This document shows, piece by piece, positions 24,381 through 54,590 of a DNA stretch of 64,000 nucleotides; positions within the stretch are counted from its first letter, which is position 1; each line of letters begins with the position of its first letter. The notes beneath the pieces were generated by a model, which was not told the origin of the DNA, made no database searches, and saw only the letters and a list, made by a program, of their open reading frames with translations. This DNA comes from an uncultured Ruminococcus sp. (GTDB taxonomy: Bacteria > Bacillota > Clostridia > Oscillospirales > Ruminococcaceae): NCBI GenBank assembly GCA_937926145.1, contig CALANW010000118.1, positions 18,338 to 82,337 of the forward strand, written 5' to 3'. Position numbers and translations under genes: made by a program.

Positions 24381-24391
24381 TCCACCGCCTT

Positions 24392-25390: not shown

Positions 25391-25442
25391 TTTTATCCTC
25401 CTTGAAGTATTATTTTTCCTTTAATTCTATTCATTTGAGGAT

Positions 25443-25475: not shown

Positions 25476-25491
25476 AGAAGATCCAATCGCA

Positions 25492-25974: not shown

Positions 25975-26036
25975 AGCATTGTCCCCTTCCAAATGTAAAA
26001 TAATCATATATATTTAACTGAAATTATTATACTTTC

Positions 26037-26065
26037 ATAATATAACAATTTCTATATTTTGTCAA
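26037..26065 (-). promoter_or_regulatory. promoter of pilin paralogue 2
   Basis: Minus strand reads TTGACA (26065-26060), 17-nt spacer, TATTAT (26042-26037). Confidence 0.55.
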
Positions 26066-26098
26066 CAGCAAAGCAAATTTGTAATCAAATTGTAATAT

Positions 26099-26911: not shown

Positions 26912-26933
26912 ATTGTCCTCACAAATGACTTTA

Positions 26934-26966
26934 TAAAAAAACAGCAGCAGAAAGGTCTGCTGCTGT
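26934..26966 (-). terminator. strong rho-independent terminator after the major pilin gene
   Basis: Minus strand reads ACAGCAGCAGACCUUUCUGCUGCUGU followed by U7. Confidence 0.85.
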
Positions 26967-26993
26967 CATTTTCAATTAGTCGCTCAAAGTCGA

Positions 26994-27569: not shown

Positions 27570-27640
27570 GTGGAAATTCCTCCTTTTCAATATTTAAAAT
27601 GTTTTTTTATTAAAACCGAACCATGCGGTTTTATACGTTA

Positions 27641-28438: not shown

Positions 28439-28495
28439 TGGGATCTCCTCCTAATAAGTTTCACACATTTTATGTAGTGTTCTCTTACTGTTATT

Positions 28496-28524
28496 ATTAT
28501 ATAGCGCGAGTATCTTTTTGTCAA
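28496..28524 (-). promoter_or_regulatory. perfect consensus promoter of the pilin sub-operon
   Basis: Minus strand reads TTGACA (28524-28519), 17-nt spacer, TATAAT (28501-28496). Confidence 0.7.
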
Positions 28525-28749
28525 TAGATTTTGTAATATTTCTGCACTAAAAAAGTGAATTTGTGTATAATTTCTTTTTATCACTAAAATTGTGATTATT
28601 TTTTGCCATTTTGACTAAATTATTAATAAACACAAACGTTTTCTTATACTCTCGGTAAAATGCATATAAGTTCTGCCAAAGTATGCACTTTTTTGTTGAA
28701 AACGTTTATGTAAAATCACACTTTTTTCTTCGGCATAACTTTTTTATTA

Positions 28750-29886: not shown

Positions 29887-29930
29887 TTCCTTTCAAGATT
29901 ATATGTTTGAAAAATATATAATAGTATATT

Positions 29931-31619: not shown

Positions 31620-31759
31620 ATATATTCTCCGTTTCTCCGTGACTAATTTTTGTGCCGCTCACGGTGCGGATTTTAAAATTGCTATTGAAAAATTTAAAAT
31701 TATATGTTAAGATATTGTTTAAGCAAATATCAAATTTTCACTGTAAAGGAGTTTTGCAA

Positions 31760-32767
31760 ATGAACATTGCCTTTGCCGCATCAGAAATGATCGGCTTGCA
31801 GATCGGTATCTATGTAATGGTGTTCCTTTTCGGGATCACGATCGGAAGCTTCCTGAACGTCTGCATATTCAGGCTTCCTGAGGGCGAATCGCTCATCAAA
31901 CGGAATTCGCACTGTATGACCTGCGGCGCGGAGATAAAGCGATATGATCTTATCCCGCTTTTCAGCTGGCTCATACTCGGGGGAAAATGCCGTTCCTGCG
32001 GAGCGAAGATATCGGGAAGATATCCGCTTGTCGAAGGATTGACGGGTGTGCTTTTCGTACTGGTCTACACACAGTATGATCTTATCACCGACGGACTTAT
32101 TTATCCTGCTGTTGTGTGTCTTTTCATTGCAGGCATCATCGTTATCGGATTTGAGGATTTTGATACGCAGGAAATGTCGGTATGTGTGCTTGTTTATCTC
32201 GGCATTGAAGCTTTTCTGACGAGAGTTCTTTCGGTGCTTCTTCCGACTGCATTCAGAGGAAACGATGTTCCGCTCGTTGACGGTATCATCGGACTTTTTG
32301 CAGTAAGCGTTCCGCTTCTTCTCATCGGTTTCGTGTTCACGCCGCTTATTTACATATTATTTATAAGTGAAGATCACAAAACTGTAAGAAAGCTGAAAAA
32401 ACGTCTTGCAAAAGAGAAGCTGAGCGAAAAGGAAGCCGAAAAACTGACCAAGCTTCTTAATGAAACTCTTGAAAAGATCAAGGAAAAAGGCCCTGTTTAC
32501 GGATTTGGAATGGGCGATATACTGTTTATGGCTGCAGGCGGCTTGATGTTCGGCTGGAAAGCAGCTGTTGTAGCGCTTTTCATCGCAATAATCATCGGAG
32601 CGGTCGCTGCCGTTGTTATCAAGATCAAAAACAAGGACAAAGAGGACGCTGACAACGCATTCGCGTTCGGTCCGTGCCTTGCAGTGGGACTTGTCTGTGC
32701 ATCATTCTTCGGAACGAAGCTTTTCGATATGTACTGGACTGCTATGACTGTTCCGCACGTTATGTGA
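31760..32767 (+). CDS. pilD: prepilin peptidase (A24 family) with N-terminal Cys-rich methyltransferase-type region
   Basis: Start at MNIAFAAS after AAAGGAG. Motifs: CxxC...CxxC (HCMTCG, CRSCG) and catalytic-type GFGMGD. An extra charged insert of about 60 aa precedes GFGMGD. Confidence 0.88.
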
Positions 32768-32782
32768 TTTGACCGATCATAT

Positions 32783-32816
32783 CGGGGGTGTGCTTATGCG
32801 CACCCCCGAATTTTTT
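32783..32816. terminator. bidirectional terminator between pilD and the convergent minor pilin gene
   Basis: CGGGGGTGTGC-TTAT-GCGCACCCCCG followed by AATTTTTT. Confidence 0.75.
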
Positions 32817-33588
32817 AATCTTTCGGAAGAGTAAAAATGATATAGGTATTTGCGTTATTTGCTGTTGTGCTTGCTCCTGCGTAAAGAGCATCAGTTGCTC
32901 CATTTATGGGAGAACTCAGATTCAAGCAATTTACCTCACCATCCGTCGAAACAAATTTATAACCTGAAACATCATTTGTACCAACGGTTGTTCCTGCACG
33001 ATTCACTTGGTCAAGTGAAGATGGTAGAAGACTCGAAACAGTAATCTTCAATCCGTCGAAGGTTTTTCCTGTCACCTTCGACGGATCAGATGGGTCATCA
33101 TGCTTTGGAACAATATTAACCGGTACAACATTAATGGAGTAAGTATATTTTCCGTAGTAAGCCTCACCAAGAGCAAGACGTGATGTCGTTCCGGTGGCGG
33201 TCTTGCTTCGGAGGATACGTCCGTATGAATCTGCGTCGTTGTACTTATACTGCGTCTTGTTGTCAATCGTGATAACATTAAGATCGCCATCTGTTGCAGA
33301 ATTGTAACCGGTTGCATTTGTAAACGCTGTAATAGCGTCTGAAAGATTGTTGATCGCCGTTGTCTGCTCGTTGTATATTCCCATTTTGGTAGCATAGCGT
33401 GTACTTTCCGTAATGTATGTCACAATGCCGCTTTGGGTATTGCGCTGAGCTTCATAATATGTCGCATCAACGTACGTGTTTCTTATCGGCTTCATCATCT
33501 GCATTATACCGACCATAAGAATTGACATAACTGCCATTACAACAATCAACTCAATAAGGGTAAAGCCTTTTATCAATTTATTTTTCAT
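32815..33588 (-). CDS. minor pilin / pseudopilin (257 aa)
   Basis: N-terminus reads MKNKLIKG/FTLIELIVVMAVMSIL. Confidence 0.75.
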   Translation of the reverse strand: MKNKLIKGFTLIELIVVMAVMSILMVGIMQMMKPIRNTYVDATYYEAQRNTQSGIVTYITESTRYATKMGIYNEQTTAINNLSDAITAFTNATGYNSATDGDLNVITIDNKTQYKYNDADSYGRILRSKTATGTTSRLALGEAYYGKYTYSINVVPVNIVPKHDDPSDPSKVTGKTFDGLKITVSSLLPSSLDQVNRAGTTVGTNDVSGYKFVSTDGEVNCLNLSSPINGATDALYAGASTTANNANTYIIFTLPKD

Positions 33589-33600
33589 AAGAGCCCCCTA

Positions 33601-34140
33601 TCAATTGCTGTGACCCACTATGTATTTATAGCGGAGCGAGATATCCTTTTCAGCCAAGCCGGTATATGCGGGATTATCCACCCAAGTACCCGACACAAGT
33701 GTTTTAGATGGTACATCGTTATTAGGATTGTTTTTGTCGTGACTGCGGCTGAGAAGAACATAGATATCAACAGGGTAGCTGTACATTTCACCTGTAAGGT
33801 TTCCTGCACTGTCGTATTTTTTGATCTCAATATAATTTTTCTGTACGGAAACGTCCGTAACCTTGCTTGGAGGGGTGCAGTCACCGCTTTTGCTTGCACT
33901 GTGGTTATCCGCAACCGATGTAGCAGATGTGCTGCCATAATAGATTGGTATAGAATCCGTTCCTGTAGCATCTTCAACAATTTTCATCTGGTATGACAAA
34001 CTTGCGTTAACGTTATGGTTGTTCAAATTTGTACGGCTTACATCTGCATAGATCTGAGCCATTACCAGTGAAGCAATGCCAAGTATCGCAAGAGCAATAA
34101 GACATTCAATAAGGGTAAAACCTCTGAAACTTTTTTTCAT
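33601..34140 (-). CDS. minor pilin / pseudopilin (179 aa)
   Basis: Start at MKKSFRG/FTLIECLIALAILGIASL after AGGAGG. The longer track ORF overlaps the upstream gene. Confidence 0.75.
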   Translation of the reverse strand: MKKSFRGFTLIECLIALAILGIASLVMAQIYADVSRTNLNNHNVNASLSYQMKIVEDATGTDSIPIYYGSTSATSVADNHSASKSGDCTPPSKVTDVSVQKNYIEIKKYDSAGNLTGEMYSYPVDIYVLLSRSHDKNNPNNDVPSKTLVSGTWVDNPAYTGLAEKDISLRYKYIVGHSN

Positions 34141-34153
34141 AGCATTTACCTCC

Positions 34154-36589
34154 TTAGTTTCTCGAATACTGGTATGACTTGAAGTCATGAATCGGATCAC
34201 CAGCCTGACCATTATCACCTGAGCTTTTATCGAGGTAAAGTATGCCTGACTGGTTGCTTTCGCTAAATTCCTGACAAAGAAGTGAACCTATAATTGCAGC
34301 GTTTTGAACGTTTGTAACTGCTCCATTACCGTTATCGTATGCAACCGTTCCTATCTTTCCACCATTATTAAGATAAAGGAAACCTGTAGGCATCATAATA
34401 TATCCGCAGATAAGGTTCTGGTTGCCTGTATTAAGGAATGAACCCGTTCCGCCATAAATATCAATGGAAGGCGCCTTTGTTGTACCATTTGTAATTGCAG
34501 TCGTTGCTGTATTGACATCGTCTGTAACAAGTATGCAATTGTCAAAGGTAGTTGTTGCAGACGCTCCTACAAGCGCTGTGTTGCTATCTTCAGGAAGTAA
34601 CAGAATAAGTCTGCCATTATCCCCTGTTACTGTCCAGCGGCAGCCATAATATGCGTTTCTATCAAGTACATAATACTGGTCACCGCTACTCAAATCAAAA
34701 GTGTAGCTGCCCGTAGGCATCGACTGAACATTTGGAATTGTACCATCGGCAATCATTGATGTAATGGTTCTGGGTCCTGCGCCTGGAGTGACAGGATCAA
34801 GCTCAAGATAATCGGCAAGCAAGTCAGCCCCCGAATTAAGCCATTTTATTTTGTTCGTTTGGCTGTAAATATTAGAATATGCATTGTCTGGATGAGTTGG
34901 ATCTGCAACTGTCGGATTGTCAAAATTCTTTAATTCACCTGTGGACTCATGAAAAGCACCATCTGCGAAATAATCATTGAAATATGCCTGAGCAGTTGGA
35001 ACTTCAATGGTGTTGCTTCCGTCAATCTGAAAAGGAAGAATATACTGTTTAAAAATCCTGTCATTTGAATCCTTTACTGTAGAATAATCGTTAATATCAA
35101 ATGGATCTGTTGATGTTTCCGGAAGAACAATTGCTCCATTTATTGTGAAAACACAAGTGTCCATAGCTGTTGCTCTTATTCCGGTTGAATCAGAAATTGT
35201 AAAGTTTCTGCAAAGTTTTAAATTTGCATTTGAATACTGATTAAGATTTATTGTTACTGTAGGCCAAGTCGATGTATCAATACAATCATCAGGCAACACC
35301 AAATTTTTTACATAAAGACTTCCATCGTTTGTATGGACCTTACCAGGATTTGTGTCTTGAACTTCAAAAGTTGTAACGTACGCATCACCATAAAAGTTTA
35401 AATCAGTAGCACTTGTTTTTACTATTTGATCTGCGATAACATTTACTTTATATGTATTATCACCGAACGTACCGCCGTTGTTGAGAACGCTTGTTCCCCC
35501 AAGGAATACATAGCAGCCATCACCTGTTGCCTTGACCTTAGTCGGGTTTGAAGATGAAACAATACCATCCATTCCAACTATAGAATCACCTGCATTGATA
35601 ACCGTGTCAGCAGATGAAACCCACTGTAGGGAACCAAGCGAAAATACAGAACCTGACATATTGTTACCATCACCTACCGCAGATGTTCCAATATCCATGC
35701 TTGCTACGCCGCCCGCAGTCCTCACCTGTGCACCGCCAGCGCCTGCAAAACTACCGGTCGTTGTAAGTGCATTATCAGAAGCCGGAGGATCTTTCTGGTT
35801 TGTATCATATATAAGCACAGCTGTGCTTTCAACGTCCATAAATGTTACAGTAGACGTTATTTTAAGACGCATCTGGTCCTTGCCTCTGGCACCGTTTTCA
35901 AACGCCTCAGGACCATCGGAGCTTGCAAGAAGAGTAGCTCTGTCCGCATAGGTTCCATCAGTTATCTTACTTTCATCAATATCATATTTTCTGTCAAGAA
36001 CTTCGACTCTGATAGTAGCTTCTATTTGGTCGACGCCTCCAACTTTAGAAGTATCGACCATTTTACCGTAGTTGTCAGAAGCACTGCTCACCTGTGGAAA
36101 AACAGTGATACGGTATTCAATATACTCATTACCTGTTGTGGAATCAGTCTGAACCTTTGTGTTGTCAGCTCCGTAATAATGATGATATTCGTCCTTTGGC
36201 GTTGCAGGCGAATAACCATTTAAAGCCGTTTGCTCAATATTATCACCACTCTGAGAATGAATATTGTACAGATCAAGCTGCAGCGCAAGACCCTGCTTCA
36301 TTTTATCTGTGGTAACATTGTTGTCATGTATATACGTTCTTACACCGCTTGAATCATAGGCATAATAATCCTTGTCATTAAGCAGGTTGTTCGTAAACAC
36401 GTCCAAAGCCGACCGCGCGGTATAATACGCCTGGTTTTCTTCATATTTGGTATAGTATCTGTTCTGCGCCGTTGAAACAACGCTCAGTGTCGCCAACAGC
36501 ATTATGATCAGAACAAACATTACCGTAACTACCATGATAAGAACAACGCCGCTAAGGCTTTTTTTCTTATCGGTACTGATTTTTGCCAT
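34154..36589 (-). CDS. very large PilX/PilK-like pilus-associated protein (N-terminal PilX_N-type anchor, no G|F cleavage motif)
   Basis: Start at MAKISTDKKKSLSGVVLIMVVTVMFVLIIMLLATLSVV...AYYTARSALD. The rest is rich in Thr/Asn/Gly/Asp, consistent with beta structure. Confidence 0.6.
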   Translation of the reverse strand: MAKISTDKKKSLSGVVLIMVVTVMFVLIIMLLATLSVVSTAQNRYYTKYEENQAYYTARSALDVFTNNLLNDKDYYAYDSSGVRTYIHDNNVTTDKMKQGLALQLDLYNIHSQSGDNIEQTALNGYSPATPKDEYHHYYGADNTKVQTDSTTGNEYIEYRITVFPQVSSASDNYGKMVDTSKVGGVDQIEATIRVEVLDRKYDIDESKITDGTYADRATLLASSDGPEAFENGARGKDQMRLKITSTVTFMDVESTAVLIYDTNQKDPPASDNALTTTGSFAGAGGAQVRTAGGVASMDIGTSAVGDGNNMSGSVFSLGSLQWVSSADTVINAGDSIVGMDGIVSSSNPTKVKATGDGCYVFLGGTSVLNNGGTFGDNTYKVNVIADQIVKTSATDLNFYGDAYVTTFEVQDTNPGKVHTNDGSLYVKNLVLPDDCIDTSTWPTVTINLNQYSNANLKLCRNFTISDSTGIRATAMDTCVFTINGAIVLPETSTDPFDINDYSTVKDSNDRIFKQYILPFQIDGSNTIEVPTAQAYFNDYFADGAFHESTGELKNFDNPTVADPTHPDNAYSNIYSQTNKIKWLNSGADLLADYLELDPVTPGAGPRTITSMIADGTIPNVQSMPTGSYTFDLSSGDQYYVLDRNAYYGCRWTVTGDNGRLILLLPEDSNTALVGASATTTFDNCILVTDDVNTATTAITNGTTKAPSIDIYGGTGSFLNTGNQNLICGYIMMPTGFLYLNNGGKIGTVAYDNGNGAVTNVQNAAIIGSLLCQEFSESNQSGILYLDKSSGDNGQAGDPIHDFKSYQYSRN

Positions 36590-36716
36590 TTTTTCCACCC
36601 TTTCTTAAAATTTTATGCCGGGGTATGAACAAAATCTTCTCTTCTTTAAAATATTTTCTCTATATGCCACTTATGCCGATGAAGAAAGGTTTCTTCATCG
36701 GCTGCGGCTTTTTTGA

Positions 36717-37472
36717 TCACTCTGCTGTTTCTTCGGTTTCAACGAGGCTTGGGTCAAAAACGAACTGGTCGCTTTCTTCCATTACCTTATCGATATTCAG
36801 AGGATAGATGGAATAGATCTTAAGATTTATTGAGCTTTCTACCTCTGCTGCACCCTGTTCATCTTCGCCCTTATTGAATTCGGTGACGATAATAGTCTTG
36901 CCGTTTTCCTTTACAGCGTCAATAAACTTATAAAGTCCGGAATAATCCATTTTATCTCTGTAGTCAACGGTCATAGATGTAACGCCGATGATGCTGCTGC
37001 CGCCTGTGCGCTTGTTTGCCTTATTATATGCATCATAAACTTCCTGCGGAAGTTCATTGTAAAGGTCGCTGTCGATGAAGATATCGCAGGCAGCGATATT
37101 CTGCGCATTTACGACATACTGTTCAATATCGTCAGCGGATGTGTACTGAGTGTTCATTCCGCGAACTGTTACGTTATTTCCGAGGATCTCACGGACATAC
37201 TGTTCGTTGAGGTACGGATCCTGCTCAGGCATAAAATATTCCTGGATCTCGCCAACATCCTGTGCTGCGGATTTAAGTGCAGCAACAACATCAGGGAGGG
37301 TGTTTATCTTAGCTTCAACATCAGCCTGTTCTGACTGTTTTGCCTGGAGTGCGCTCTTTGCATAATTCATTTCCTCAAACTTAGGCTTGATGAAAACGAA
37401 AATACCTGCAACGATAATAATTATAACGATCGCTGCAACAAAAATTACTTTATCTCTGTATGAAAGCTTCAT
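36717..37472 (-). CDS. PilO-like pilus assembly protein (single N-terminal TM, coiled coil)
   Basis: 251 aa with a TM at residues ~10-30, then a coiled-coil segment. The call rests on its position after pilMN. Confidence 0.5.
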   Translation of the reverse strand: MKLSYRDKVIFVAAIVIIIIVAGIFVFIKPKFEEMNYAKSALQAKQSEQADVEAKINTLPDVVAALKSAAQDVGEIQEYFMPEQDPYLNEQYVREILGNNVTVRGMNTQYTSADDIEQYVVNAQNIAACDIFIDSDLYNELPQEVYDAYNKANKRTGGSSIIGVTSMTVDYRDKMDYSGLYKFIDAVKENGKTIIVTEFNKGEDEQGAAEVESSINLKIYSIYPLNIDKVMEESDQFVFDPSLVETEETAE

Positions 37473-37474
37473 TC

Positions 37475-38983
37475 TTATTCAGCCTCCTCTGTTGTTTCTT
37501 CGGGAACGACTTCCTTTATCTGGACAAAGATCGTGAAATCATATACTTCCTTTACCGAATCCTTATCCGACGAGCTGCTGTAGCCTGTGTAGGTTATATT
37601 GGAGAAAGCATCCTGATCGACAAAATTCGTAACTACCTTTGCAGGTGTCTGGTTGTCATCAGCACGGCACTGGAGAGTGATCGCACCGTTGGAATAAGTG
37701 TAACTGAGTATCTTTGCATCTGTGCCCTTGAAGTTTTCCTCGAGGGTCGTTTTAACTTCTGTTGTGAATACAGGAAGCGAATCGAAATAGCCCTTAGCTT
37801 CTTCAAGGCTGCTGCGGAACGAATTTACCTTGTCGAGCTTTGCCTGAGCTGTGTCAACAGCGGCAGTCTTCTGTGCTGTTTCGGGACTGTCGAGCCAAGC
37901 CTGGATCGTTGCGGTATCGTCCTCATACTGGCTCTTTACAACGTTTGCGCCGAGAGTAATACCTGCAACAAGAGCGATCGAAGCAAGAGCTGCGACTGCA
38001 ACGGTAACAACAAAGGAAGCACCTGCAGCGGAACGTCCCGATGTTGCGTCTGTTTCGATAAGGTTGATTCTTTCGGAGTCCTTGTTGCTTCTGAGCATAG
38101 CGCCGATAGCGTTTGCATAAGCCTGGAACTCGAAGTTTTCATAGCCGCCGACGTTGTTCGGAACACCGAGGAGGCTCGTTACGATATCAAGGGATTCAAG
38201 AGCATTTGTAAGGCGGATATACTCTGTTGTATCACCGTAGAAAACAACGTTCTTGATAGGATCTTCGGGATTTCTCGATCTCTGGAACTGGAACATACGG
38301 GAGATGTTTTCGGTAACAGCTTCGTAGATGTAATCCTCGGAGTTGTCATAGTCAACAGGGTCGATCGATGCAAAACGCGAGAATGTAAGCTGGTTGTTCT
38401 CATAGAGGTTAAGGCTTACGAAGTTCGGGTCGATCTGAACGAGGAGCATAGGCATTTTTGCCTTCATCTTCGGATCGGAAATGATAAGTCTTGAAATAGT
38501 GTTGCAGGCAACGGCTACGGAACGAAGTCCTATGCCGAGCATCGAGAACACCTTTCTGAAGCAGTCAACGACTTCAAACGGGCAGGCTGTTGCAAGTATC
38601 TTAAGAGCCGCAACGCCATCCTCTTCGATCTCACCTGCAATGGTGTAGGAGATCGAATAGTCGTCAGCAATACCCATTGTATGCTGCATCTGGTTCTGGA
38701 CCATTGAAAGGAGCTGAGCGCCCTTTGCCTTAGGGATATGTAACTCCTTGAAGATAACAAGGTTCGAGGAAATGCTGATAACAGCTTCCTTGTCAGCCAT
38801 CTTCTTGTTTTTGAGTTCTTCGTTGATTATTGTTGCGATTTTAGGTATATCTTTAATGTGACCATTAACGATAAGACCTTCTTCGAGATCGATAGCAGCA
38901 GCAGCGGAAACCTTGATCTTGTTGTTTGCTTCTGTACCACGAATAATTCGAATATGTCTGTCGGTAATATCAAATGAAAGCAT
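37475..38983 (-). CDS. pilM: PilM-PilN fusion-type pilus assembly protein
   Basis: Start at MLSFDIT after GAGGTG. Actin-like N-terminal ~330 aa, a TM segment (FVVTVAVAALASIALVAGITLG), then an extracytoplasmic tail. Confidence 0.65.
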   Translation of the reverse strand: MLSFDITDRHIRIIRGTEANNKIKVSAAAAIDLEEGLIVNGHIKDIPKIATIINEELKNKKMADKEAVISISSNLVIFKELHIPKAKGAQLLSMVQNQMQHTMGIADDYSISYTIAGEIEEDGVAALKILATACPFEVVDCFRKVFSMLGIGLRSVAVACNTISRLIISDPKMKAKMPMLLVQIDPNFVSLNLYENNQLTFSRFASIDPVDYDNSEDYIYEAVTENISRMFQFQRSRNPEDPIKNVVFYGDTTEYIRLTNALESLDIVTSLLGVPNNVGGYENFEFQAYANAIGAMLRSNKDSERINLIETDATSGRSAAGASFVVTVAVAALASIALVAGITLGANVVKSQYEDDTATIQAWLDSPETAQKTAAVDTAQAKLDKVNSFRSSLEEAKGYFDSLPVFTTEVKTTLEENFKGTDAKILSYTYSNGAITLQCRADDNQTPAKVVTNFVDQDAFSNITYTGYSSSSDKDSVKEVYDFTIFVQIKEVVPEETTEEAE

Positions 38984-39026
38984 ACTCGTCACCTCACTGA
39001 TTTATTTTTTAAATAGATTTTTATTT

Positions 39027-40220
39027 TTACTGGATATTTTCGAACGAACCGTAAAGAGCCGGAAGGATACCTGCAATAACGAAACCGATCGCAGTACCCA
39101 TAAAGATGATCATTACAGGCTCGATCATACCGACAAGACGTCCGATAGCAGCGTCCGATTCATCTTCATAGAATTCAGCGGACTTTGTAAGAATGGTATC
39201 GAGCGCACCGGATTCCTCACCAACATAGATGATAGAAACGAACATTGACTCGAAAATGCCCGTTCTCTGAATGGAAACGGAGAGCTGTTCACCCTGCTTT
39301 ACTTCATCAACGACTGTTTCAAAAGCCTTTTCGATATAGTCATTGTTAAGGATAGCAGCCGAACGTTCAAGTGCTTCGACCATAGGGATACCGGAGGAAT
39401 AAAGCGACGAAAGTGTTCTTGCGAATTTACCGGTATAAACCTTTACAACAAGCTTTCCGAAGCCGGGACCTTTACATTTCAGTTTATCCCATTTATAATG
39501 TATCGACGGAACTTTAAGAGCATACTTTACTGCAAAGATAACGCCGAGGATAACAGCGATGTAAACATACCAGTAGCCGATAAGGCTGTCGGAGAATGCA
39601 AAAAGAGCACCTGTGATACCCTTCATATCCTCTTCTCTCATCATATCCTTGAATGTAGGCATGATAAATGTGAAAAGGAGAACAACGATCGCTACGCAGA
39701 GAACAGCAAGGATAATAGGATACATCATTGAGCCTTTTATCTTGTTGTTGAGTTTAGCTTCCTTTGCGTAGTTATCTTCAAGTCGCTTTGAAATAACGTC
39801 AAGAGAACCCGAAGCTTCACCTGCCTGAACCATCGAGATCATAAAGTTCGGGAATGCACCCTGCTGCATTTTGAGAGCGTCCGAGAAAGACGAACCCTTC
39901 TGAACTTCTTCGTAGATCTCCTGATAGATCTGCTTCTGCGCTTTCTTTTCCTGCTCTTTATACAGGATATCGAGCGCCTTGACGAGTGTGAGTCCCGATG
40001 TCAGCATTGCGCTGAGCTGTCTGCAGTCATTGGAGAGCTCTTTTGTCGTGAACTTATGAAGAGTGTTTGTCGTTTTGGAAGAAGCTTCCTTGTAGCTGGA
40101 GCAAAAAAGCCCCTTTTCGTGGATCTTTTCCAAAAAGTCATTTACATCCTCAGCCGTCATTCGAGCGTTCTTGACAGTATTGCCCTGAACGTCTGTGGCG
40201 GTGTAGATAAATGTCTTCAT
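39027..40220 (-). CDS. pilC: type IV pilus platform protein PilC (GspF family)
   Basis: 397 aa with two GspF-type repeats and three TM segments. Confidence 0.88.
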   Translation of the reverse strand: MKTFIYTATDVQGNTVKNARMTAEDVNDFLEKIHEKGLFCSSYKEASSKTTNTLHKFTTKELSNDCRQLSAMLTSGLTLVKALDILYKEQEKKAQKQIYQEIYEEVQKGSSFSDALKMQQGAFPNFMISMVQAGEASGSLDVISKRLEDNYAKEAKLNNKIKGSMMYPIILAVLCVAIVVLLFTFIMPTFKDMMREEDMKGITGALFAFSDSLIGYWYVYIAVILGVIFAVKYALKVPSIHYKWDKLKCKGPGFGKLVVKVYTGKFARTLSSLYSSGIPMVEALERSAAILNNDYIEKAFETVVDEVKQGEQLSVSIQRTGIFESMFVSIIYVGEESGALDTILTKSAEFYEDESDAAIGRLVGMIEPVMIIFMGTAIGFVIAGILPALYGSFENIQ

Positions 40221-40288
40221 ATAGGATTTACACCTCCGGTTGGATAAAAAAGATTTAAGGGCACACCCTGCCCCAAGATACTACCCCT

Positions 40289-40317
40289 ATTATAACATTT
40301 TGGTTACAAATTGGCAA
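40289..40317 (-). promoter_or_regulatory. promoter of the pilC-pilMN-... operon (extended -10)
   Basis: Minus strand reads TTGCCA (40317-40312), a 17-nt spacer ending in TGT, then TATAAT (40294-40289). Confidence 0.6.
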
Positions 40318-40616
40318 TATGTTATTTTCAACAAAATGTCTAAAAATATTGTACGTTTATCACAAAGCTTTCAACAACATCTATGTTTTAAGTCTAAAAT
40401 ATGTCCTGATTTTGTATTTATTTCATCTTTTTGATATACTATTCTTGTCCTCCAAAAACTTGCACAGCAATAGTGCTTTTTCCTGCAAAAACTCAAAAAC
40501 AAGCCTCTGCAATGCAACTTATCTTTTAAAATCCTGCATCATTACGTCATATTGCTCAATATTTATGGTCAAATATTGTAAACCTATAAAAAATTTGATT
40601 TTTTGGCAAAAAGCTC

Positions 40617-40645
40617 TTGCAAACCAAAGATGTATAGTGTATAAT
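40617..40645 (+). promoter_or_regulatory. gdhA promoter (extended -10)
   Basis: TTGCAA (40617-40622), a 17-nt spacer ending in TG, then TATAAT (40640-40645). Confidence 0.6.
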
Positions 40646-40728
40646 AGAAACTGTAATGTTCTCCGTAACGAAAAAGCGGCGGAACGAGAAGCTGTGAGTG
40701 AGTCATCAGCACTATATACTATTATTAA

Positions 40729-42099
<1,371 letters not shown>

Positions 42100-42102
<3 letters not shown>

Positions 42103-42585
42103 TTCGGAATTAGGAATTCGGAATGCGGAATTAGTTTGCTTCGCAAATAATTTTAAATCGTTGGGGCGGATTCTATATCCGCCCTTTTCGTGTTTAATTG
42201 CTAATTGGATTTTCGATATGCGAATAAACAAAGACAGACCTGTTTTCAAAGAATTATCCCTTTGAAAACAGGTCTGTTCGTTTATTTTATACTAAACACC
42301 AATTAAAAACTATACAAAAAATCAAGCAAAAGCTCGTAGCTGTTATAACAGCTTGATGTTGAAAACAGGTTTATATGGCTTTTGCGCCGATTTTTTGTCT
42401 ACACTTTGATTAAAAATTAGTATTATAACGCCTTGCGGCGCGGGACGGGAAACCCGTCCCCTACAGTAGTTCCGCTGTAATTCGTAGATTGCATCGGGCG
42501 GATATGGAATCCGCCCCTACGAAAATCCGTTTTTTCGCCGTAAATTTTCGGAGCAAAATAATTCCGAATTCCGCATTCCGAATTA
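42100..42585. repeat. mosaic intergenic repeat locus B (type example)
   Basis: Left array T(AATKMGG)x4AATTAG at 42100-42134. Right array (ATTCCGM)x3 at 42558-42585. Palindromes at 42163-42184 (+), 42442-42464 (-) and 42496-42520 (-). Central terminator hairpin at 42234-42277. Confidence 0.85.
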
Positions 42586-43635
42586 ATCCTTAATGTTTTC
42601 TATAAACTTCGTCAATTCCCCTGCCATTTCATTGTGTTCCGCAAGTCTTGGGTGTCCGGGAGTTGCCGCGCCGTTTCTTGTAAAGAGGTTATGGTATGCT
42701 TTTATGCCCATTTCGTTAAGCTCGTTCTTTATCTCCTCTATTGCGTTATCCCATTCGGCATCGTGCATCAATATTGTCGTTGTGAGGACAAATTTCGGCG
42801 AGGAATACTTTTTATCGAGGTCGCGGACCATTTTGATATATGCGGTCTTCCACACTTTTCTGTACTCGGGGTCGGAGATGTTTATATCGTCGCTGTCCGT
42901 TCTGCCGTTATGCTTATCGTTCTGACCGATAGCAATTACGACGATATCGGGGATATAACGTGAGAAATCCCACTGCGAAAGTCCGCCCTCGGGGAAGTAA
43001 CAGAGCTTATCATAGACGCTTTCCAGTCCGATATAATCGGGGTGGTGGAAATATCCCGTTCCGTCAAAGAGCGCGATGCCGCCCTGACAGATATTATGTA
43101 TTTCCGCACCGATATTGCGCGCGGTCTGCATCACAAAGCTGTTCCAGACGTTATCATAGCGGCTATTGTGATTTTCTGGGTCACATTTGCCGATATAATC
43201 TGCGGCTTCGATGACCTCACCTGCGCAAACGCTGTCGCCGTAAACTTCCATTTTAAGCTTCGGCTTTTCGGGCGCATCGAGCATTTCGCCGTCTATCTCA
43301 ATACCTTTGAGGGTCAAAAGCTGGTTTGCGGCGTGCTGCTTGTATATTGTGACATTATGCTCGGTGTTTTCAAGGTTTTCCGCTATAACAATATCGATAT
43401 CCCTGCCGTTATTTTCGGCGGAAAGCTTCACACTGCACTGTTTTCCGTCAACGACTGCGCCGAGGGAAAGTTCGCCCCAATAGATAACGGTGTTGATCCT
43501 GACGGTGAGTGCTGTTCCCTTGAAGCGGAACGAAGCACTTGAACCTGCGTAGTAAAACACGGGTGCATTTTCATCACCGAAATTTATTCTTCCGCTGTAT
43601 GATATCCTTTTATCCGACATTTTTATGCTGTTCAT
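42583..43635 (-). CDS. SGNH-hydrolase carbohydrate esterase (CE2-like acetyl esterase) with N-terminal beta-sandwich
   Basis: 350 aa with GDS block (VYGDSVCAG), GQND block and a C-terminal His (PGHP). No signal peptide. Confidence 0.75.
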   Translation of the reverse strand: MNSIKMSDKRISYSGRINFGDENAPVFYYAGSSASFRFKGTALTVRINTVIYWGELSLGAVVDGKQCSVKLSAENNGRDIDIVIAENLENTEHNVTIYKQHAANQLLTLKGIEIDGEMLDAPEKPKLKMEVYGDSVCAGEVIEAADYIGKCDPENHNSRYDNVWNSFVMQTARNIGAEIHNICQGGIALFDGTGYFHHPDYIGLESVYDKLCYFPEGGLSQWDFSRYIPDIVVIAIGQNDKHNGRTDSDDINISDPEYRKVWKTAYIKMVRDLDKKYSSPKFVLTTTILMHDAEWDNAIEEIKNELNEMGIKAYHNLFTRNGAATPGHPRLAEHNEMAGELTKFIENIKD

Positions 43636-45476: not shown

Positions 45477-45820
45477 TAATGCGGAATTAGGAATTCGGAA
45501 TTATTAGCATAGCTAACATTTGCCTGGTATTGCGAAGCCAAGCGAAACTTTATAAACCAACAATCAAATAGCGTGATATTTAGCAGATCAAAAGCGCAGT
45601 TCACACGATAACGGAAAACGAAATTCGTGATCTTTAATGTGAATTGCGCTGTTCTGTTTTTCCGAAACAAGCAAACAGCTTATACATAATGTTAGAATAT
45701 AACAACGCGTCAAAGCAATATGCCGCAGGGCTATTTACTTTTATATTTTTTACGGTATAATTAAAAATCAGAGCATGGACCCACGGCAATTCCGAATTCC
45801 GCATTCCGAATTCCGAATTT
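45477..45820. repeat. mosaic intergenic repeat locus C
   Basis: Left array at 45477-45503 (TAATGCGGAATTAGGAATTCGGAATTA). Right array (ATTCCGM)x4 at 45788-45820, directly upstream of the traX RBS. Confidence 0.8.
45593..45661 (+). terminator. long-loop hairpin plus U-rich tail inside locus C
   Basis: AGCGCAGTTCACA...TGTGAATTGCGCT followed by GTTCTGTTTTT. Plausible GH9 terminator. Confidence 0.45.
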
Positions 45821-47200: not shown

Positions 47201-47908
47201 ATGAGCAATCCAATTAAAGAACTTACAGCAAAGGAATGGGCGCTTTGGCTCTGTTCTCTGCTTGCGGTAATAGCTTCAAACCTGCTTGCGGGAAATGTCG
47301 ATATCCTCACGCTCGCGGCGGTATGCATCGGTGTGACTTCACTTGTATTTGCCGCGAAGGGCAATGTCTGGTCGCAAATACTGATGATAGTTTTCAGTGT
47401 CCTCTACGGTATAATTTCGTGGAGATTCCGATACTGGGGCGAAATGATGACCTACCTCGGAATGACCCTGCCAATGGCGGTCTGGTCAACGATAACGTGG
47501 ATAAAAAATCCGTCCGAGAACGGAAAAGAGGTCGAAATACAGAAGCTCACCAAGAAGCACGTCATAGGACTTGTTTTCTTCGGGATAGTAACGACAGCCG
47601 TGTTCTATTTTATATTGAAAGCACTCGGCACACCGAATATCGCCTTCAGTACACTGTCGGTAACAACGAGCTTTTTCGCCGCATCACTCACAATGCTCCG
47701 CTCGCCATTCTATGCGCTCGGATATGCATCGAATGATATCGTGCTCATAGTTTTGTGGGTGCTGGCTTCGATGAATGACCCTCAGTATATCCCCGTTGCG
47801 GTCAATTTTGCGATATTCTTTTTCAATGATATGTATGGATTTGTCAGTTGGAGAAAGAGAGCGCAGGTTCAGAACAGTAATCTGTCGGAGAAATGCGAAG
47901 CTGAATAA
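47201..47908 (+). CDS. pnuC: nicotinamide riboside transporter PnuC family
   Basis: 235-aa polytopic protein with Trp-rich PnuC-like segments (WSTITWIKNP, NDMYGFVSW). Confidence 0.75.
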   Translation: MSNPIKELTAKEWALWLCSLLAVIASNLLAGNVDILTLAAVCIGVTSLVFAAKGNVWSQILMIVFSVLYGIISWRFRYWGEMMTYLGMTLPMAVWSTITWIKNPSENGKEVEIQKLTKKHVIGLVFFGIVTTAVFYFILKALGTPNIAFSTLSVTTSFFAASLTMLRSPFYALGYASNDIVLIVLWVLASMNDPQYIPVAVNFAIFFFNDMYGFVSWRKRAQVQNSNLSEKCEAE

Positions 47909-47943
47909 AGTTAAATAAAATTTAGCAGAGTGTACGAATTTCG

Positions 47944-48181
47944 GCAGGGACGAATTCCATATCCTCCGGATAAACGCACGATTTTGCTCCGCAAAACAAA
48001 TATTGCAGGACATTGTAATATAAACGAACAAGACCTGTTTTCATTGGAATTTTCCTTTGAAAACAGGTCTGTTTTTATAATTATTTCCGACACTTCGTGC
48101 GCCGAAAAATCACTTCGCGATTTGGGACAGGTGCCCCGCCCCTACGGAGTTTATGACAAATATACGCAATACAAATAATTA
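47944..48181. repeat. degenerate mosaic repeat locus D
   Basis: Degenerate palindromes at 47947-47970 and 48124-48145. The GATAAACGCACGATTTTGCTCCGCAAAAC module is present. Terminator hairpin at 48030-48072 plus T5. An ATTACGC heptamer remnant contains the galK stop. Confidence 0.65.
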
Positions 48182-49426
48182 CGCATTGATCTCAGTTCCG
48201 CCAACAGGACGAATGAAAAGCTTGTGGCACGAACCCTCGCCGAAGACAGCGTTTTCTGCCTTGATGAATTCGTCAAGAAGCTCGTTCGGAACGAACGCCT
48301 GAATAGTGCCAGCGAAGCCGCCGCCGTGTACACGCGATGCGCCCTTTCCGCCGAGAACGCGCTCTGCGGTGTAAAGTCCGACCGCAACGCCCTGCTCTTC
48401 GGGGTTCTTGTTCGCATAAACATTCTGCAGGAATTTATAGGAGCTGTTTCCGCTCGCGTTAATTGCTGCGAGGAATGTGTCGATATCGCCCGATTTGAGC
48501 GCTTCTGCCGCTTTTTCCACGCGGTTGTTCTCATCGAAGAAATGCGCCGCACGGAGAACTGCTCTGTCACCGCACTTTTTGCGAAGTTCGCCCATTTTCG
48601 CGAAGAACTCCTCTTCCTCGACCTCGCGGAGAACGGTCTTTCCGAGTGCCGCCGCAACCGACTTCATCTCGGCAGGGATAGCCGCATATTCGGGGGTAAG
48701 GTCTGCGTGGCTGCCCTTGGTGTCAACGATGCAGAGGGTGTAGCCGTACTGATTGATGTTGAACTCGATCGGCACGATGATAGGATACTGCGTTTTCTTG
48801 AAGTCAACATAAACGAAGCCGCCGACCGAAGCCGCCATTTGGTCAAGAAGTCCGCTCGGCTTGCCAAAATATTCATTCTCGGCGAACTGTGATATCTGCG
48901 CCGCCTTAACTGCGCTCACGGTGTTGTCATTGTAAAGTCCCGAAAGTATGCTTGCAACGAGGACTTCAAACGCTGCCGAGGACGAAACGCCGCTTCCTTT
49001 CATAACGTCCGAGGTCATATAAGCCTTGAAGCCGCCTATTTTAAGTCCGTTTTTTGCAAAGCCTGCCGCAACACCTCTAACGAGCGCAGGAGTTGTGTCC
49101 TTTTCGTCAGCCTTGGCTTCAAGCTCTTTCGTGTCAACGGTGAAAAGTGGATAGCCCTCCGATTTTACGGTGATGATGCCGTCATCGGTCGGAACGGTGT
49201 ATGCGATGATGTCAAGGTTTACAGCCGCCGCAAGAACCTTGCCGTTGTTGTGGTCGGTGTGGTTGCCGCTTACCTCTGTTCTGCCGGGGGCGGAGAAAAT
49301 TCTCATGCCGCTCTGCTCGCCGAATTCCCTGACAAAGCTTTCCTCAGCAGCCTTGTAACGTGCTTTCTGGCGGTCAAGCTGATCTTCGCCGTAAAGCTTT
49401 ATAAGCTCATTTTCATTGATATTCAT
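48179..49426 (-). CDS. galK: galactokinase
   Basis: 415 aa with the galactokinase signature GRTEVSGNHTDHNNG and a GHMP motif (GSGVSSSAA). Confidence 0.93.
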   Translation of the reverse strand: MNINENELIKLYGEDQLDRQKARYKAAEESFVREFGEQSGMRIFSAPGRTEVSGNHTDHNNGKVLAAAVNLDIIAYTVPTDDGIITVKSEGYPLFTVDTKELEAKADEKDTTPALVRGVAAGFAKNGLKIGGFKAYMTSDVMKGSGVSSSAAFEVLVASILSGLYNDNTVSAVKAAQISQFAENEYFGKPSGLLDQMAASVGGFVYVDFKKTQYPIIVPIEFNINQYGYTLCIVDTKGSHADLTPEYAAIPAEMKSVAAALGKTVLREVEEEEFFAKMGELRKKCGDRAVLRAAHFFDENNRVEKAAEALKSGDIDTFLAAINASGNSSYKFLQNVYANKNPEEQGVAVGLYTAERVLGGKGASRVHGGGFAGTIQAFVPNELLDEFIKAENAVFGEGSCHKLFIRPVGGTEINA

Positions 49427-49439
49427 AGTTTTATTCTCC

Positions 49440-50720
49440 TTAGCTTTCCATTATTGCAAGAATTGTGATGCCCTTGTCCTCCGAACCATCGGCAGGCTTT
49501 ATTTCAACAGTGTGCTTTTCGGTGTCCTTTGCAAGAAGAACCTGCTTCGGGAAAGCGTAATTTCCCCAGCCGCCCGAGAAGTCGCCCTCGAGCTTGCCCT
49601 TGCGCTCGCCGTCAACATAAACTTCGTAAGTACCGCTCTTGCCGTCCGTAGTTTTGAGGTAAAGTATGCCGATGTTCTGACATTCAACATCGAATGAGAG
49701 CGTTCCGCCGCCCTCCGTTATCCAGTTTTCGGGGAACTGTGAGTAGACCTTGTTCTGACCGACCTCGAAGCCGTCGGCAGTATATTCGATCTGCGAAGCG
49801 TTGACAAGCTTTGCGTTTTTGTAGTAATCGTTTGTGTAGCCCTCTGTGTCGAATGCAGTCACTTCAGCGGCAAGAGAAGCTGTGTCGGAATCGTAAATTC
49901 CGTCAAGATAGCGGGAAAGAAGCTGACCGATGATGCCGTGACCGATATCGTTCGGGTGAATGTTGTCGGGCGAAATGTCTTTCCAGTTGATAGTTCCTGC
50001 CGCAACCTCGGGATAAACGGCTTCACGGTAGCTTATCATTGGCAGATCGTAAGCCTTGCCTATCTCCTTGTGAACGTCCTGCAGGCTCGTTCCGTCCTCC
50101 TGCGTGGTGAAAAGGAGAATGACAGCAGGCTCGTTTTCAGCGGAAAGAACCTTGCGCACAAGGCTGTCGTAGGAGTATTTGTTCATGGTCTTGTCCGTGT
50201 CGTTTACCGAGAATTCGATAACAACAACATCGGGGTTGTAGGAAAGAAGCTGTTCGTCAGCGCGGTGAACGCCAAGATAGGAGTCCGTTCCGCCGATGCC
50301 TGCATTAACTGTGTTGACTTCGCACTCGGGGAACTTTTCCTGCCACCAGGAGAAAAATCTCGAAGCATAGCAGCTGTTAGTGCTTGATGCCGCCGTTCCC
50401 TGCGTGATAGAGCCGCCGATAGCCGCAACGGTGATGCTTTCACCCTTTTTAGCCTTTTCCATAGCCGCTGCAAGACGGGAAGTGTTGCCCTCGTTGAGGA
50501 GTGCGCGGTTGTACATCTTGTCGGTAACGCCGCCCTCAAGGTCGAACGGTACGCTCGGGTCAACAGCGTTTTCATCTACCGAAACAGCGGTGGTAACAAC
50601 CGTCGCCGCCTCGCTCGTTTCGGAAGTGCCTGCATCGTCAGTCTTGTTTCCGCAGCCGCCGAGCATCGAAATGCATATAAGCGCCGCGATAAAAGCGGAA
50701 ATGCGCTTTGTATTCTTCAT
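49440..50720 (-). CDS. secreted SGNH/GDSL-type esterase lipoprotein with C-terminal beta-sandwich domain
   Basis: Lipobox ISMLGGCG. Block I reads AAIGGSITQG and block V reads DNIHPNDIGH. Confidence 0.75.
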   Translation of the reverse strand: MKNTKRISAFIAALICISMLGGCGNKTDDAGTSETSEAATVVTTAVSVDENAVDPSVPFDLEGGVTDKMYNRALLNEGNTSRLAAAMEKAKKGESITVAAIGGSITQGTAASSTNSCYASRFFSWWQEKFPECEVNTVNAGIGGTDSYLGVHRADEQLLSYNPDVVVIEFSVNDTDKTMNKYSYDSLVRKVLSAENEPAVILLFTTQEDGTSLQDVHKEIGKAYDLPMISYREAVYPEVAAGTINWKDISPDNIHPNDIGHGIIGQLLSRYLDGIYDSDTASLAAEVTAFDTEGYTNDYYKNAKLVNASQIEYTADGFEVGQNKVYSQFPENWITEGGGTLSFDVECQNIGILYLKTTDGKSGTYEVYVDGERKGKLEGDFSGGWGNYAFPKQVLLAKDTEKHTVEIKPADGSEDKGITILAIMES

Positions 50721-50816
50721 ATATTATCGTTCCTTTCCGATTTTTAGGAAAAATATTCAATGTACTAATTATACCAAACTTTTGCTGTAAATGCAATAAT
50801 GTTTGAGGGATTTTAT

Positions 50817-50919
50817 TAATGCTTAATGCGTAATTCGTAATGCGTAATTATTTTATTTCGGGAAATTGTTGTTTCGCCGTAAATTTGCGGAGCAAAATAA
50901 TTACGCATTGCGAATTGCA
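50817..50919. repeat. minimal mosaic repeat element (locus E, 103 bp)
   Basis: The (AATKCKT)x4 array at 50817-50850 and the inverted ATTRCGM array at 50899-50919 are separated only by the ATTTCGGG...CGCCGTAAATTTGCGGAGCAAAAT core. Confidence 0.8.
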
Positions 50920-50981
50920 AATGTTATACCCTCTATAACTAATTTAAATATCGCAATATTTATAAATTAATAAAAAATCGG

Positions 50982-54319: not shown

Positions 54320-54322
<3 letters not shown>

Positions 54323-54590
54323 TTCGGAATTAGGAATTCGGAATGCGGAATTATTGGTGATTTGTACATTTGTCACGAAACGCCAAAATTTCGTACCATA
54401 AGGCATTAATATAATAACAAACAACCCTGTTTTCAATGGTTTTATCCAAAGAAAATAGGGTTGTTTTTGTTATTATTCAAGATATTGGGTACACATAAAA
54501 TTGCTGACGCAATTCGGGACGGAAATCGGTTCTCGCCATAAATTTGCGGAGCAAAGTAATTCCGAATTCCGCATTCCGAATTCCGAATTA
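54320..54590. repeat. mosaic intergenic repeat locus F
   Basis: Left array at 54320-54353 starts with the ilvC stop TAA. Right array (ATTCCGM)x4 at 54558-54590 ends with the sod stop. Terminator hairpin at 54421-54464. Degenerate palindrome at 54516-54535. Confidence 0.85.

Follow-up and report, generated by a model that had tools for sequence, protein, structure and literature searches.

What are the tandem arrays of a seven-nucleotide unit that stand, often in inverted pairs, between the genes of an uncultured Ruminococcus sp., and to what kind of element do they belong? The question is raised by a 64,000-nucleotide stretch of contig CALANW010000118.1 (hereafter the window, in which position 1 is the first letter), and most directly by the intergenic region at 42,100-42,585, which has an array of heptamers of the pattern AATKMGK at one end and an inverted array at the other. 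The answer that we favour, with somewhat better than even confidence, is that the arrays are the inverted ends of widespread cassettes whose coding members carry a gene of the PF05635 family, and that the window loci are gene-less members. The best-supported reading of the window interiors is that local palindromic modules, the terminators of flanking convergent genes among them, have colonised them or taken their place.

The evidence for a link to PF05635 comes from other genomes. A scan of a species-representative genome collection with AATTCGKAATGCGKAATT, an 18-mer query, returned at least 119 genome loci (labelled L001 onward). About 70 chance matches are expected for an 18-mer of such degeneracy in ~1.2e12 positions; nearly all of the matches listed extend the 7-nt period past the matched 18 bases, so that most are taken to be genuine arrays. 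When all open reading frames (ORFs) of these loci (8 kb each) were clustered into families, one small family of ~120 aa was found exactly between inverted arrays in six of them (L025, L032, L041, L051, L060 and L114). Its product matches PF05635 with E = 1e-28 (“23S rRNA-intervening sequence protein”) and TIGR02436 with E = 1e-31 (“four helix bundle protein”); its relatives in the PDB, 2RLD and 2GSC, have five chains each. The cassette stands between housekeeping genes, and typically it takes up the stretch between the stop codon of the upstream gene and a point shortly 5' of the ribosome-binding site (RBS) of the downstream gene. It fills the spacer between two subunit genes of type II topoisomerase in L051 (parE-parC), L032 and L060, and lies between whiA-like and dnaE-like genes in L025. 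The only other families that cluster near the arrays are ABC ATPases and syntenic housekeeping genes.

A test free of selection on the repeat was made with 80 metagenome loci fetched by the protein alone, of which 67 had both flanks present. A period-7 array lies within 160 nt of the PF05635 ORF in 55 of the 67, and on both sides in 25. For control ORFs from the same contigs that are not adjacent to a cassette, the corresponding counts are 12 and 3 of 66, which amounts to a 4- to 8-fold enrichment of arrays at PF05635 genes. The left and right arrays around these genes are reverse complements. Their heptamer varies by lineage (AATTCGG, AATGCGT, AATTGAC, AATTCAT, AATTCAC, AATTGAG, AAGGTAA, AGTTCAT and others), an AAT core being usual; it is identical in 85% of pairs with >95% protein identity and in 1% at 50-65%. 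Because the heptamer difference rises steadily with protein divergence, gene and arrays are taken to descend together. The heptamers of the window type (AATTCGG, AATGCGG, AATTCGT and AATGCGT) flank the gene in L025, L041, L051, L060, L129, L133, L139, L153 and L219.

Some further observations concern the gene itself. In L219-L224 (2880-3400) one four-helix-bundle cassette stands between N6/N4 methyltransferase and ResIII helicase genes beside a phage-type integrase, a setting that suggests a restriction-modification operon on an integrative element. This cassette protein was found on 514 contigs in a protein search and in 920 blocks of a contig index, and the arrays 5' of its ORF alternate plus, minus, plus, minus. 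In L184 a four-helix-bundle gene adjoins a 290-bp GAACTAT array. PADLOC gave only a marginal, implausible match for the four-helix-bundle protein, and a single viral contig holds a close relative of the cassette protein.

How do the window arrays compare? Thirteen tandem AATKMGK arrays are present at seven loci, with one further remnant of two units. The pattern (AATKMGK)x3 with at most one mismatch has 28 overlapping matches in the window and none in 100 shuffles. Tandem Repeats Finder (TRF) and a generic period-7 finder placed the window arrays at the AATKMGK sites listed below and in no other place, and both found none in 1-21272 or 22369-42100, where the ribosomal and pilus clusters lie. 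The original prediction had given the same count and the same absence from these clusters, and its division into two subfamilies also stands: G-type units (AATTCGG, AATGCGG, AATTAGG) and T-type units (AATTCGT, AATGCGT) both occur in the window. If orientation is taken as the strand on which the unit reads AATKMGK, plus and minus arrays alternate along the window, and six inverted pairs (21273/22338, 42101/42584, 45478/45819, 50818/50916, 54321/54589 and 59676/60094) enclose intergenic segments of 99-1096 bp. Eight of the 12 arrays reported by TRF have 4.6 copies, and most window arrays begin within or beside the stop codon of a neighbouring gene. The locus at 47.9 kb had been described as paired like the others; its interior modules are indeed present, but it has no left array and, on the right, the two-unit remnant only. 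All seven loci sit between protein-coding genes and not in 23S rRNA, and the window contains no tRNA and no rRNA. The arrays are as follows, with the letters of the elements that they bound.

21273-21307, plus strand: T-type array, left end of element a
22311-22338, minus strand: T-type array, inner right end of element a, matching the left array
22348-22368, minus strand: G-type solo outer array of element a, beside the stop of the gene at 22380-22943 (minus strand)
42101-42135, plus strand: left array of element c, five G-type heptamers (AATTCGG AATTAGG AATTCGG AATGCGG AATTAGT)
42557-42584, minus strand: right array of element c, four G-type heptamers, overlapping the stop (42583-42585) of a minus-strand gene
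45478-45505, plus strand: left array of element e
45792-45819, minus strand: right array of element e, just 5' of the RBS and ATG (45842) of the next gene
48174-48187, minus strand: array remnant of two T-type units, element f, containing the galK stop codon
50818-50852, plus strand: T-type left array of element g
50896-50916, minus strand: T-type right array of element g
54321-54355, plus strand: left array of element h, overlapped by the ilvC stop
54562-54589, minus strand: right array of element h, overlapped by the sodA stop
59676-59710, plus strand: left array of element j
60060-60094, minus strand: right array of element j

The two ends of an element resemble each other beyond the shared period. 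The base at unit position 7 is the same on both sides in 73 of 82 distinct pairs, and identity at the three variable positions is 0.742, compared with 0.599 +/- 0.020 for permuted partners. When the ends are counted as a helix, the share of cells that pair is 89.4% (shuffles: 84.9 +/- 0.6) and a change on both sides is seen in 77 cells (shuffles: 45 +/- 4), although the pair sequences are mutually related and these shuffle counts are not to be read as probabilities. Sliding the partner array by 1-3 columns abolishes pairing. The matching signal comes mainly from position 7 (G-C vs U-A), and the type of the element is conserved more than perfect complementarity. Array length has a sharp peak, with its mode at 4.5 units (~32 nt, five AAT cores), in both locus sets (239 and 174 arrays); such a distribution is not what slippage alone gives.

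The arrays extend far beyond the window. Among the loci listed, the majority belong to gut or rumen Oscillospiraceae, Ruminococcus, Acutalibacteraceae and other Clostridia. Other hosts of AATKMGK heptamers are Treponema, Nostoc, Leptolyngbya, Gemmataceae, Thermoguttaceae, Phycisphaerae and Caldilineaceae, as well as Bacteroidales, Lentisphaeria, Holophagae, Gemmatimonadetes and delta-proteobacteria, GC-rich genomes included. In other phyla, too, a plus array is as a rule followed by a minus array at 60-900 bp, and 47 viral or proviral contigs match the array pattern. With at least 119 genome loci and these viral contigs, the family is dispersed, as had been proposed, and is not the result of local duplication. 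The sub-terminal module and GC hairpins, by comparison, turned up nowhere but in close Ruminococcus relatives and a single viral contig, and the terminator hairpins are likewise confined to close Ruminococcus relatives. Given this restriction, the inner modules are best regarded as local additions and the arrays as the universal part. The closest relative of the window is the uncultured Ruminococcus metagenome-assembled genome (MAG) L089, with 87-96% DNA identity over 6.7 kb, and conspecific contigs stem from human gut metagenomes.

Other arrangements were noted among these loci. Different heptamer families (GAGGAGT/GAAGAGT, GTAGGCA/GTAGGGA and AATTAGC) stand directly beside AATKMGK arrays in L003, L069, L113, L118 and others. 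An inverted array pair surrounds a purN-like gene in a Bacteroidales MAG (L024, 1868-2580), and another surrounds a PHP-domain-like ORF in a delta-proteobacterial MAG (L065, 1613-2204). In both cases a sense array precedes the start codon and an antisense array follows the stop, which would allow the two ends of the mRNA to pair.

Inside the arrays, the window elements have the nested architecture that was first described for them: a sub-terminal TTTTGCTCCGYAAATTT..GGCGA module, GC palindromes and a central terminator hairpin could all be located. The sub-terminal module has nine copies in the window at three or fewer substitutions. The sequences GTAGGGGCGGATTCTATATCCGCCC and CGGGACGGGAAACCCGTCCCCTAC, in which GTAG or CTAC stands beside an imperfect GC palindrome, have several intergenic copies in both orientations. 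Element c, whose left array overlaps the glutamate dehydrogenase TAA at 42100-42102, is set out here with its modules, followed by the other elements.

42101-42584, no strand assigned: element c, between the TAA stop of the glutamate dehydrogenase gene (40744-42102, plus strand) and the stop of the CE2 esterase gene (42583-43635, minus strand)
42133-42150: weaker copy of module B, after the left array of element c
42163-42185: GC hairpin GGGGCGGATTCTATATCCGCCC resembling repetitive extragenic palindromic (REP) sequences, with an inverted partner at 42493-42522
42233-42278: bidirectional intrinsic terminator at the centre of element c, with a stem of 19-20 bp and a T-rich tail on each strand
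42441-42522: two GC hairpins, each then followed by CTAC (CGGGACGGGAAACCCGTCCCCTAC, GGGCGGATATGGAATCCGCCCCTAC), 80% identical to 59955-60036
42532-42560, minus strand: sub-terminal module B', reading TTTTGCTCCGAAAATTTACGGCGAAAA on the minus strand and holding a small 5-bp hairpin
21273-22368: element a, whose interior has a toxin-like unit in two copies, a REP-like hairpin (22248-22280) and a terminator (22140-22183)
45478-45819: element e, between the co-directional genes GH9 and TraX
47935-48187: element f, with REP-like modules, a terminator (48031-48082) and the array remnant only
50818-50916: element g, the minimal form, 99 bp long and made up of array, module B, B' and array in that order
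54321-54589: element h, between ilvC and sodA, with a terminator hairpin at 54416-54471
59676-60094: element j, flanked by dxs and the following minus-strand gene, with module B at 59707-59742
59742-59774, 59955-59980 and 60007-60036: REP-like hairpins of element j, whose terminator lies at ~59853-59900

Hairpins akin to the terminator at 42233-42278 recur at 22141, 48031, 54423 and 59853. Element g sits between divergent genes, 5' of the lipase and ilvB promoters. The single strand of element c (42098-42587) is predicted to fold with its arrays paired (-200.9 kcal/mol, z = -15.9), as is that of element g (50812-50922; -40.7 kcal/mol, z = -5.8), and these predicted folds agree with the earlier suggestion that read-through transcripts could form a very long stem. 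The description of the whole as a mosaic repeat family needs qualification: the arrays are widespread, but they and the inner modules are not one unit, the latter being local and swapped between strains.

Several side observations concern the interiors and the remainder of the window. Two GC-hairpin families with GTAG/CTAC flanks (GGGCGGATATGGAATCCGCCCCTAC, CGGGACGGGAAACCCGTCCCCTAC) are REP-like and always lie inside array pairs; the hairpin sites are 22248-22280, 42163-42185, 42441-42522, 47935-47971, 59742-59774 and 59955-60036. Within element a, 21373-22106 consists of two tandem ~390-bp copies of a convergent pair. On the minus strand of this unit a promoter (TTGACA-17-TAAAAT) precedes a 29-aa hydrophobic peptide, MSITEVVSLGILICNIIQIVLNCCNNKKK, and on the plus strand a perfect promoter (TTGACA-17-TATAAT, at 21385 and 21776) precedes an RNA of ~90 nt that ends at a terminator (21485-21503, 21876-21893) and overlaps the 3' end of the peptide ORF. 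It looks like a duplicated type I toxin-antitoxin unit inside an array-bounded element, and it matched no Rfam family. Rfam searches of the whole window at gathering thresholds, and of 21250-22400 and 42090-42600 at an E-value threshold, returned only sub-threshold hairpin look-alikes for the elements. Elsewhere in the window, the ribosomal cluster has upstream of it, at 12177-12257 on the minus strand, a ribosomal protein leader of the S10-Clostridia family (RF03136; score 38.5 bits, above gathering), which supports placing the window in the Clostridia. A 56-nt intragenic repeat occurs five times on the minus strand (25904-25959, 27496-27551, 28338-28393, 33515-33570 and 34070-34125); it encodes the conserved N-terminal methylation/hydrophobic segment of type IV pilin-like proteins, in paralogous genes of the pilus cluster.

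Do these regions differ between close strains? Between the same two stops, three unrelated interiors (344, 480 and 806 bp) are present in genomes whose glutamate dehydrogenase proteins are identical. The ilvC-sodA locus was compared in 11 strains with identical IlvC: the arrays abut both stops in all 11 and have 3-7 units; six strains have the G-type and five the T-type, and the two sides always agree. In L209 a remnant array is followed by a new array, and in one strain the right half is duplicated. Between strains, the arrays of element g vary by indels of 7 or 14 nt, and element c of the sister species L089 has arrays of mixed type. Flanked by elements f and g, the galK-lipase block (48179-50720 of the window) has the opposite orientation in L122, L213 and L216; each array stays with its gene end, which places the inversion breakpoints in the interiors of the elements. 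The comparison of orthologous regions that the original prediction had proposed thus showed polymorphism in both interiors and arrays; it gave no clean filled-versus-empty site. Three observations made alongside these comparisons are of separate interest. In L211, L212 and L214 (~8030-9660) the ilvC-sodA array pair encloses ~1.6 kb including a complete HTH_3 gene, with its own promoter-like sequence and terminator, whose protein has an internally repetitive C-terminal half. A second sub-terminal module, ..GCAAAACTCAACTTTG..GCGAAGCC.., is present in this cargo and also follows arrays at 45505-45550 and in L036, L110 and L122. The PnuC-like gene (47201-47908) is missing from L213.

Which of these features are already known? 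The intervening sequence (IVS) in the 23S rRNA of Coxiella burnetii is 428 nt long and encodes S23p, a protein of the PF05635 family, and its inverted repeats form a 28-bp stem (PMC4990558). These repeats contain 2-4 tandem GACAGAT heptamers, the number of which differs between strains, and the stem is cut by RNase III in vitro, the ends having been mapped (PMC4990558). S23p IVSs (Coxiella, Leptospira) resemble the elements described here in their terminal repeats of ~28-32 bp made of tandem heptamers in strain-variable number and in a length of ~0.4-0.5 kb, and the PF05635 ORF between their repeats has its counterpart in the six gene-carrying loci and in 55 of the 67 metagenome loci. The window elements differ in being ORF-less, in lying outside rRNA, after stops or between promoters, in their heptamer (AATKMGK, not GACAGAT) and in interiors that contain terminators and REP-like hairpins.

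Intergenic inverted pairs of heptamer arrays are also on record. In Xanthomonas, 186 GGGAATC arrays were described, mostly of four units, ~75% of them in convergent inverted pairs, at a mean of 28 nt to the upstream ORF vs 160 nt to the downstream ORF (Rehm et al. 2015, PMC4692102). These arrays share with those of the window their intergenic position, an AAT core (AATCGGG vs AATTCGG), variation in length and sequence between close species, a size of about four units, convergent pairing and proximity to the upstream ORF. They were read as G-quadruplex formers, with no mention of S23p (PMC4692102). The window units differ in having GG at most, and single Gs in the T-type, which allows no three-tetrad quadruplex, and their sub-terminal and interior modules are different. 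One Xanthomonas array follows bccP at a distance of 6 nt and overlaps the XCC0516 start (PMC4692102 supplementary table); XCC0516 is the PF05635 protein of PDB 2GSC. The cyanobacterial short tandemly repeated repetitive (STRR) sequences, and TAACTGA of Beggiatoaceae, Cyanobacteria and Bacteroidetes, are short intergenic heptamer arrays often directly beside coding regions, with a patchy phylogenetic spread suggesting horizontal transfer (PMC4679880). They differ in being mostly direct arrays 5' of start codons, and neither inverted pairing nor a link to a protein was reported for them (PMC4679880). PF05635 is also regarded as the family of Avd, the accessory protein of diversity-generating retroelements (PMC10053308). 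The cassette protein is of the same fold family, a pentameric nucleic-acid-binding four-helix bundle; the cassettes examined differ in that no reverse transcriptase, template repeat or variable repeat adjoins them.

It follows from these reports that the class is not, as first claimed, previously unrecognised: inverted intergenic pairs of heptamer arrays and heptamer-ended S23p IVSs have both been published. Rfam has no family for the repeats, in line with the accompanying remark that they were not recognised as any named Firmicute repeat. What appears to be new, as judged from the searchable literature, is the Clostridia family with the AATKMGK unit, the composite form that it takes in Ruminococcus and the general association of heptamer arrays with PF05635. 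[quoted passage not shown]

If the arrays are cassette ends, how might the cassettes persist? By analogy with the IVSs, two arrays on one transcript would form a stem of ~30 bp. RNase III would cut this stem, as has been shown for the S23p IVS, and the cassette would be removed at the RNA level; because of this removal it could sit harmlessly in rRNA, in operon spacers or after stops. Over time the arrays are seen to change by whole 7-nt units while the two arrays of an element keep the same type, and the elements are seen as sites where conspecific genomes differ by interior exchange, cargo genes and block inversion. Spread would need a trans factor; the pentameric four-helix-bundle protein is the leading candidate and may recognise the five AAT cores that are usual in an array. 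The window elements would, we infer, derive from or depend on gene-carrying cassettes.

A number of observations weigh against the cassette reading. The link is asymmetric, in that most four-helix-bundle genes have arrays and ~5% of array pairs have the gene. An hmmsearch over the window and L001-L128, with a PF05635 profile that was built from five close sequences and is narrow, found the ORF only in the six loci named above; among six-frame ORFs there was none in the window, in L089 or in L120-L128. Since no PF05635 ORF lies between their arrays, the window elements are at most gene-less derivatives. At convergent genes a strong terminator lies between the arrays, so most transcripts would carry one array and the RNase III stem would be rare. 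Position 4 of the unit (T/G) varies almost independently in inner units, and because it barely covaries, shared type or descent fits the matching of the ends better than strict selection for pairing. The marks of transposition that were looked for were not found: there is no clean empty site (L089 lacks the right array of element e, but its surroundings have also diverged), no target-site duplication at 69 pairs, and no transposase at the 119 or more loci. Finally, the abutment of arrays on stop codons, with its strong orientation bias, is not explained except by an insertion-site preference or short original spacers.

That last point speaks for a different explanation, according to which the array is a host cis-element of the gene whose stop it abuts, linked to the 3' untranslated region or to translation termination (for example, as the site of an RNA-binding protein), and pairs are a by-product of convergent genes. 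The position relative to stop codons, which the original prediction had proposed to tabulate, was surveyed for 191 arrays and showed a strong sense-orientation abutment. Of 93 arrays with a co-oriented gene on the 5' side, 35 start inside the stop codon of that gene and 50 start no more than 7 nt away, and arrays beside a stop codon are sense in ~50 cases vs antisense in ~7. Many arrays are solo, and these show the same bias, 28 beginning within 10 nt of a co-oriented stop vs two next to an opposite-strand gene. The arrays also remain at both stops in all 11 ilvC-sodA strains despite the change of interior, and move with their gene end when a block is inverted. However, pairs are not limited to convergent genes, as they also stand between the co-directional genes of element e and the divergent promoters of element g. 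The arrays around PF05635 genes are inverted, so that one of them is antisense in any transcript, which weakens the cis-element explanation. Furthermore, the members of a pair share their type far above chance, G-type and T-type are exchanged at the same stop codon, and short original spacers would put any insertion near a stop. On balance we consider a host cis-element unlikely. It is quite unlikely, too, that the arrays are cassette-exchange recombination sites, integron- or invertase-like, at which a recombinase recognises the heptamers and swaps or inverts the contents. The wholly different interiors between identical flanking proteins with arrays in place, the whole-gene cargo (the HTH gene of L211, L212 and L214, and purN of L024) and the block inversion bounded by elements are what such sites would give. 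Yet no recombinase is associated with the arrays in the 8-kb loci, the breakpoints fall between the arrays, where homologous recombination of inverted interior modules suffices, and the swapping of interiors is accounted for by allelic replacement via flanking genes.

Dispersed elements that are small, lie between genes and have inverted ends are familiar from Correia/NEMIS, ERIC, RUP and BOX, of which Correia stems are sensitive to RNase III and BOX is modular and mosaic. Such MITEs have fixed terminal repeats, TA duplications (Correia, RUP, ERIC) and known or suspected insertion sequence (IS) partners. Could the window elements be classical IS-derived MITEs, mobilised by a DDE transposase of the IS630/mariner type with a TA target, the heptamer arrays serving as terminal inverted repeats? 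They are small, intergenic and dispersed and end in inverted repeats, the base at -1 is T in 50% of arrays and the flanks are AT-rich, and layouts of a remnant plus a new array (L209; 22311-22368) suggest repeated insertion. Against this, the search for target-site duplications that was originally proposed came out negative: no direct repeat flanks any of the 69 inspected pairs, and no TA or TTAA duplication was found. Among the ORF families of the 8-kb loci no transposase or recombinase is enriched near the arrays, PF05635 being the only enriched small ORF. The sequence of the terminal repeat shifts by lineage while the 7-nt period is kept, and many arrays are solo. Unlike the named families, these elements have ends of variable tandem heptamers, no visible duplication and, as coding partner, a four-helix-bundle protein. 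With no target-site duplication at the 69 pairs and no transposase among the ORF families of the 8-kb loci, they are not classical MITEs in our reading, and we regard that origin as very unlikely. Simple repeats made by slippage, acting as phase-variation tracts or G-quadruplex formers and having no link to a gene family, are highly improbable. Copy number does differ in 7-nt steps between strains, and passages in two papers describe heptanucleotide repeats as over-represented in bacteria (PMC4679880, citing Mrazek 2007; PMC4692102). The same heptamers, however, occur in GC-rich and AT-rich phyla, their length peaks at 4.5 units and does not decay, the inverted pairs are matched, and arrays are enriched 4- to 8-fold at PF05635 genes; as for quadruplexes, T-type units have no G runs and G-type units GG only. 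Two further candidates were set aside. Backup stop codons in three frames are provided by T-type arrays, in which (TAATKCG)n gives TAA in all frames, and not by G-type arrays, and CsrA-type GGA sites, like G-quadruplexes, fail for T-type units.

The cassette reading can be extended, doubtfully, to the whole intergenic excess of heptanucleotide arrays (STRR, TAACTGA, GGGAATC and AATKMGK), which would then be the footprint of a single PF05635 system. In this extension a homopentameric PF05635 ring might read five AAT-type cores 7 nt apart in single- or double-stranded nucleic acid and, with host factors, propagate or maintain cassettes without target-site duplication. One possible route, by analogy with Avd, would be an RNA intermediate released by RNase III together with a reverse transcriptase acting in trans. 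If all this were true, the gene-less pairs of the window would count as non-autonomous representatives of a new mobile-element class.

Three separate puzzles are tied together by these observations, namely the excess of 7-nt repeats (in many bacteria the most over-represented of the long simple repeats, as noted since 1990 and 2007), the role of the very widespread S23p gene and the origin of 23S rRNA IVSs: the repeats are read as matched cassette ends, and gene-less pairs are common in the same genomes. The reading offers testable ideas, including a 5:5 stoichiometry of protein and repeat, excision by RNase III and co-occurrence of gene and arrays across genomes. For annotation, the arrays mark gene ends precisely and can mislead ORF callers. 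For the biology of gut Ruminococcus, the array-bounded intergenic regions are where conspecific strains differ, in their interiors, their captured genes and their inversions.

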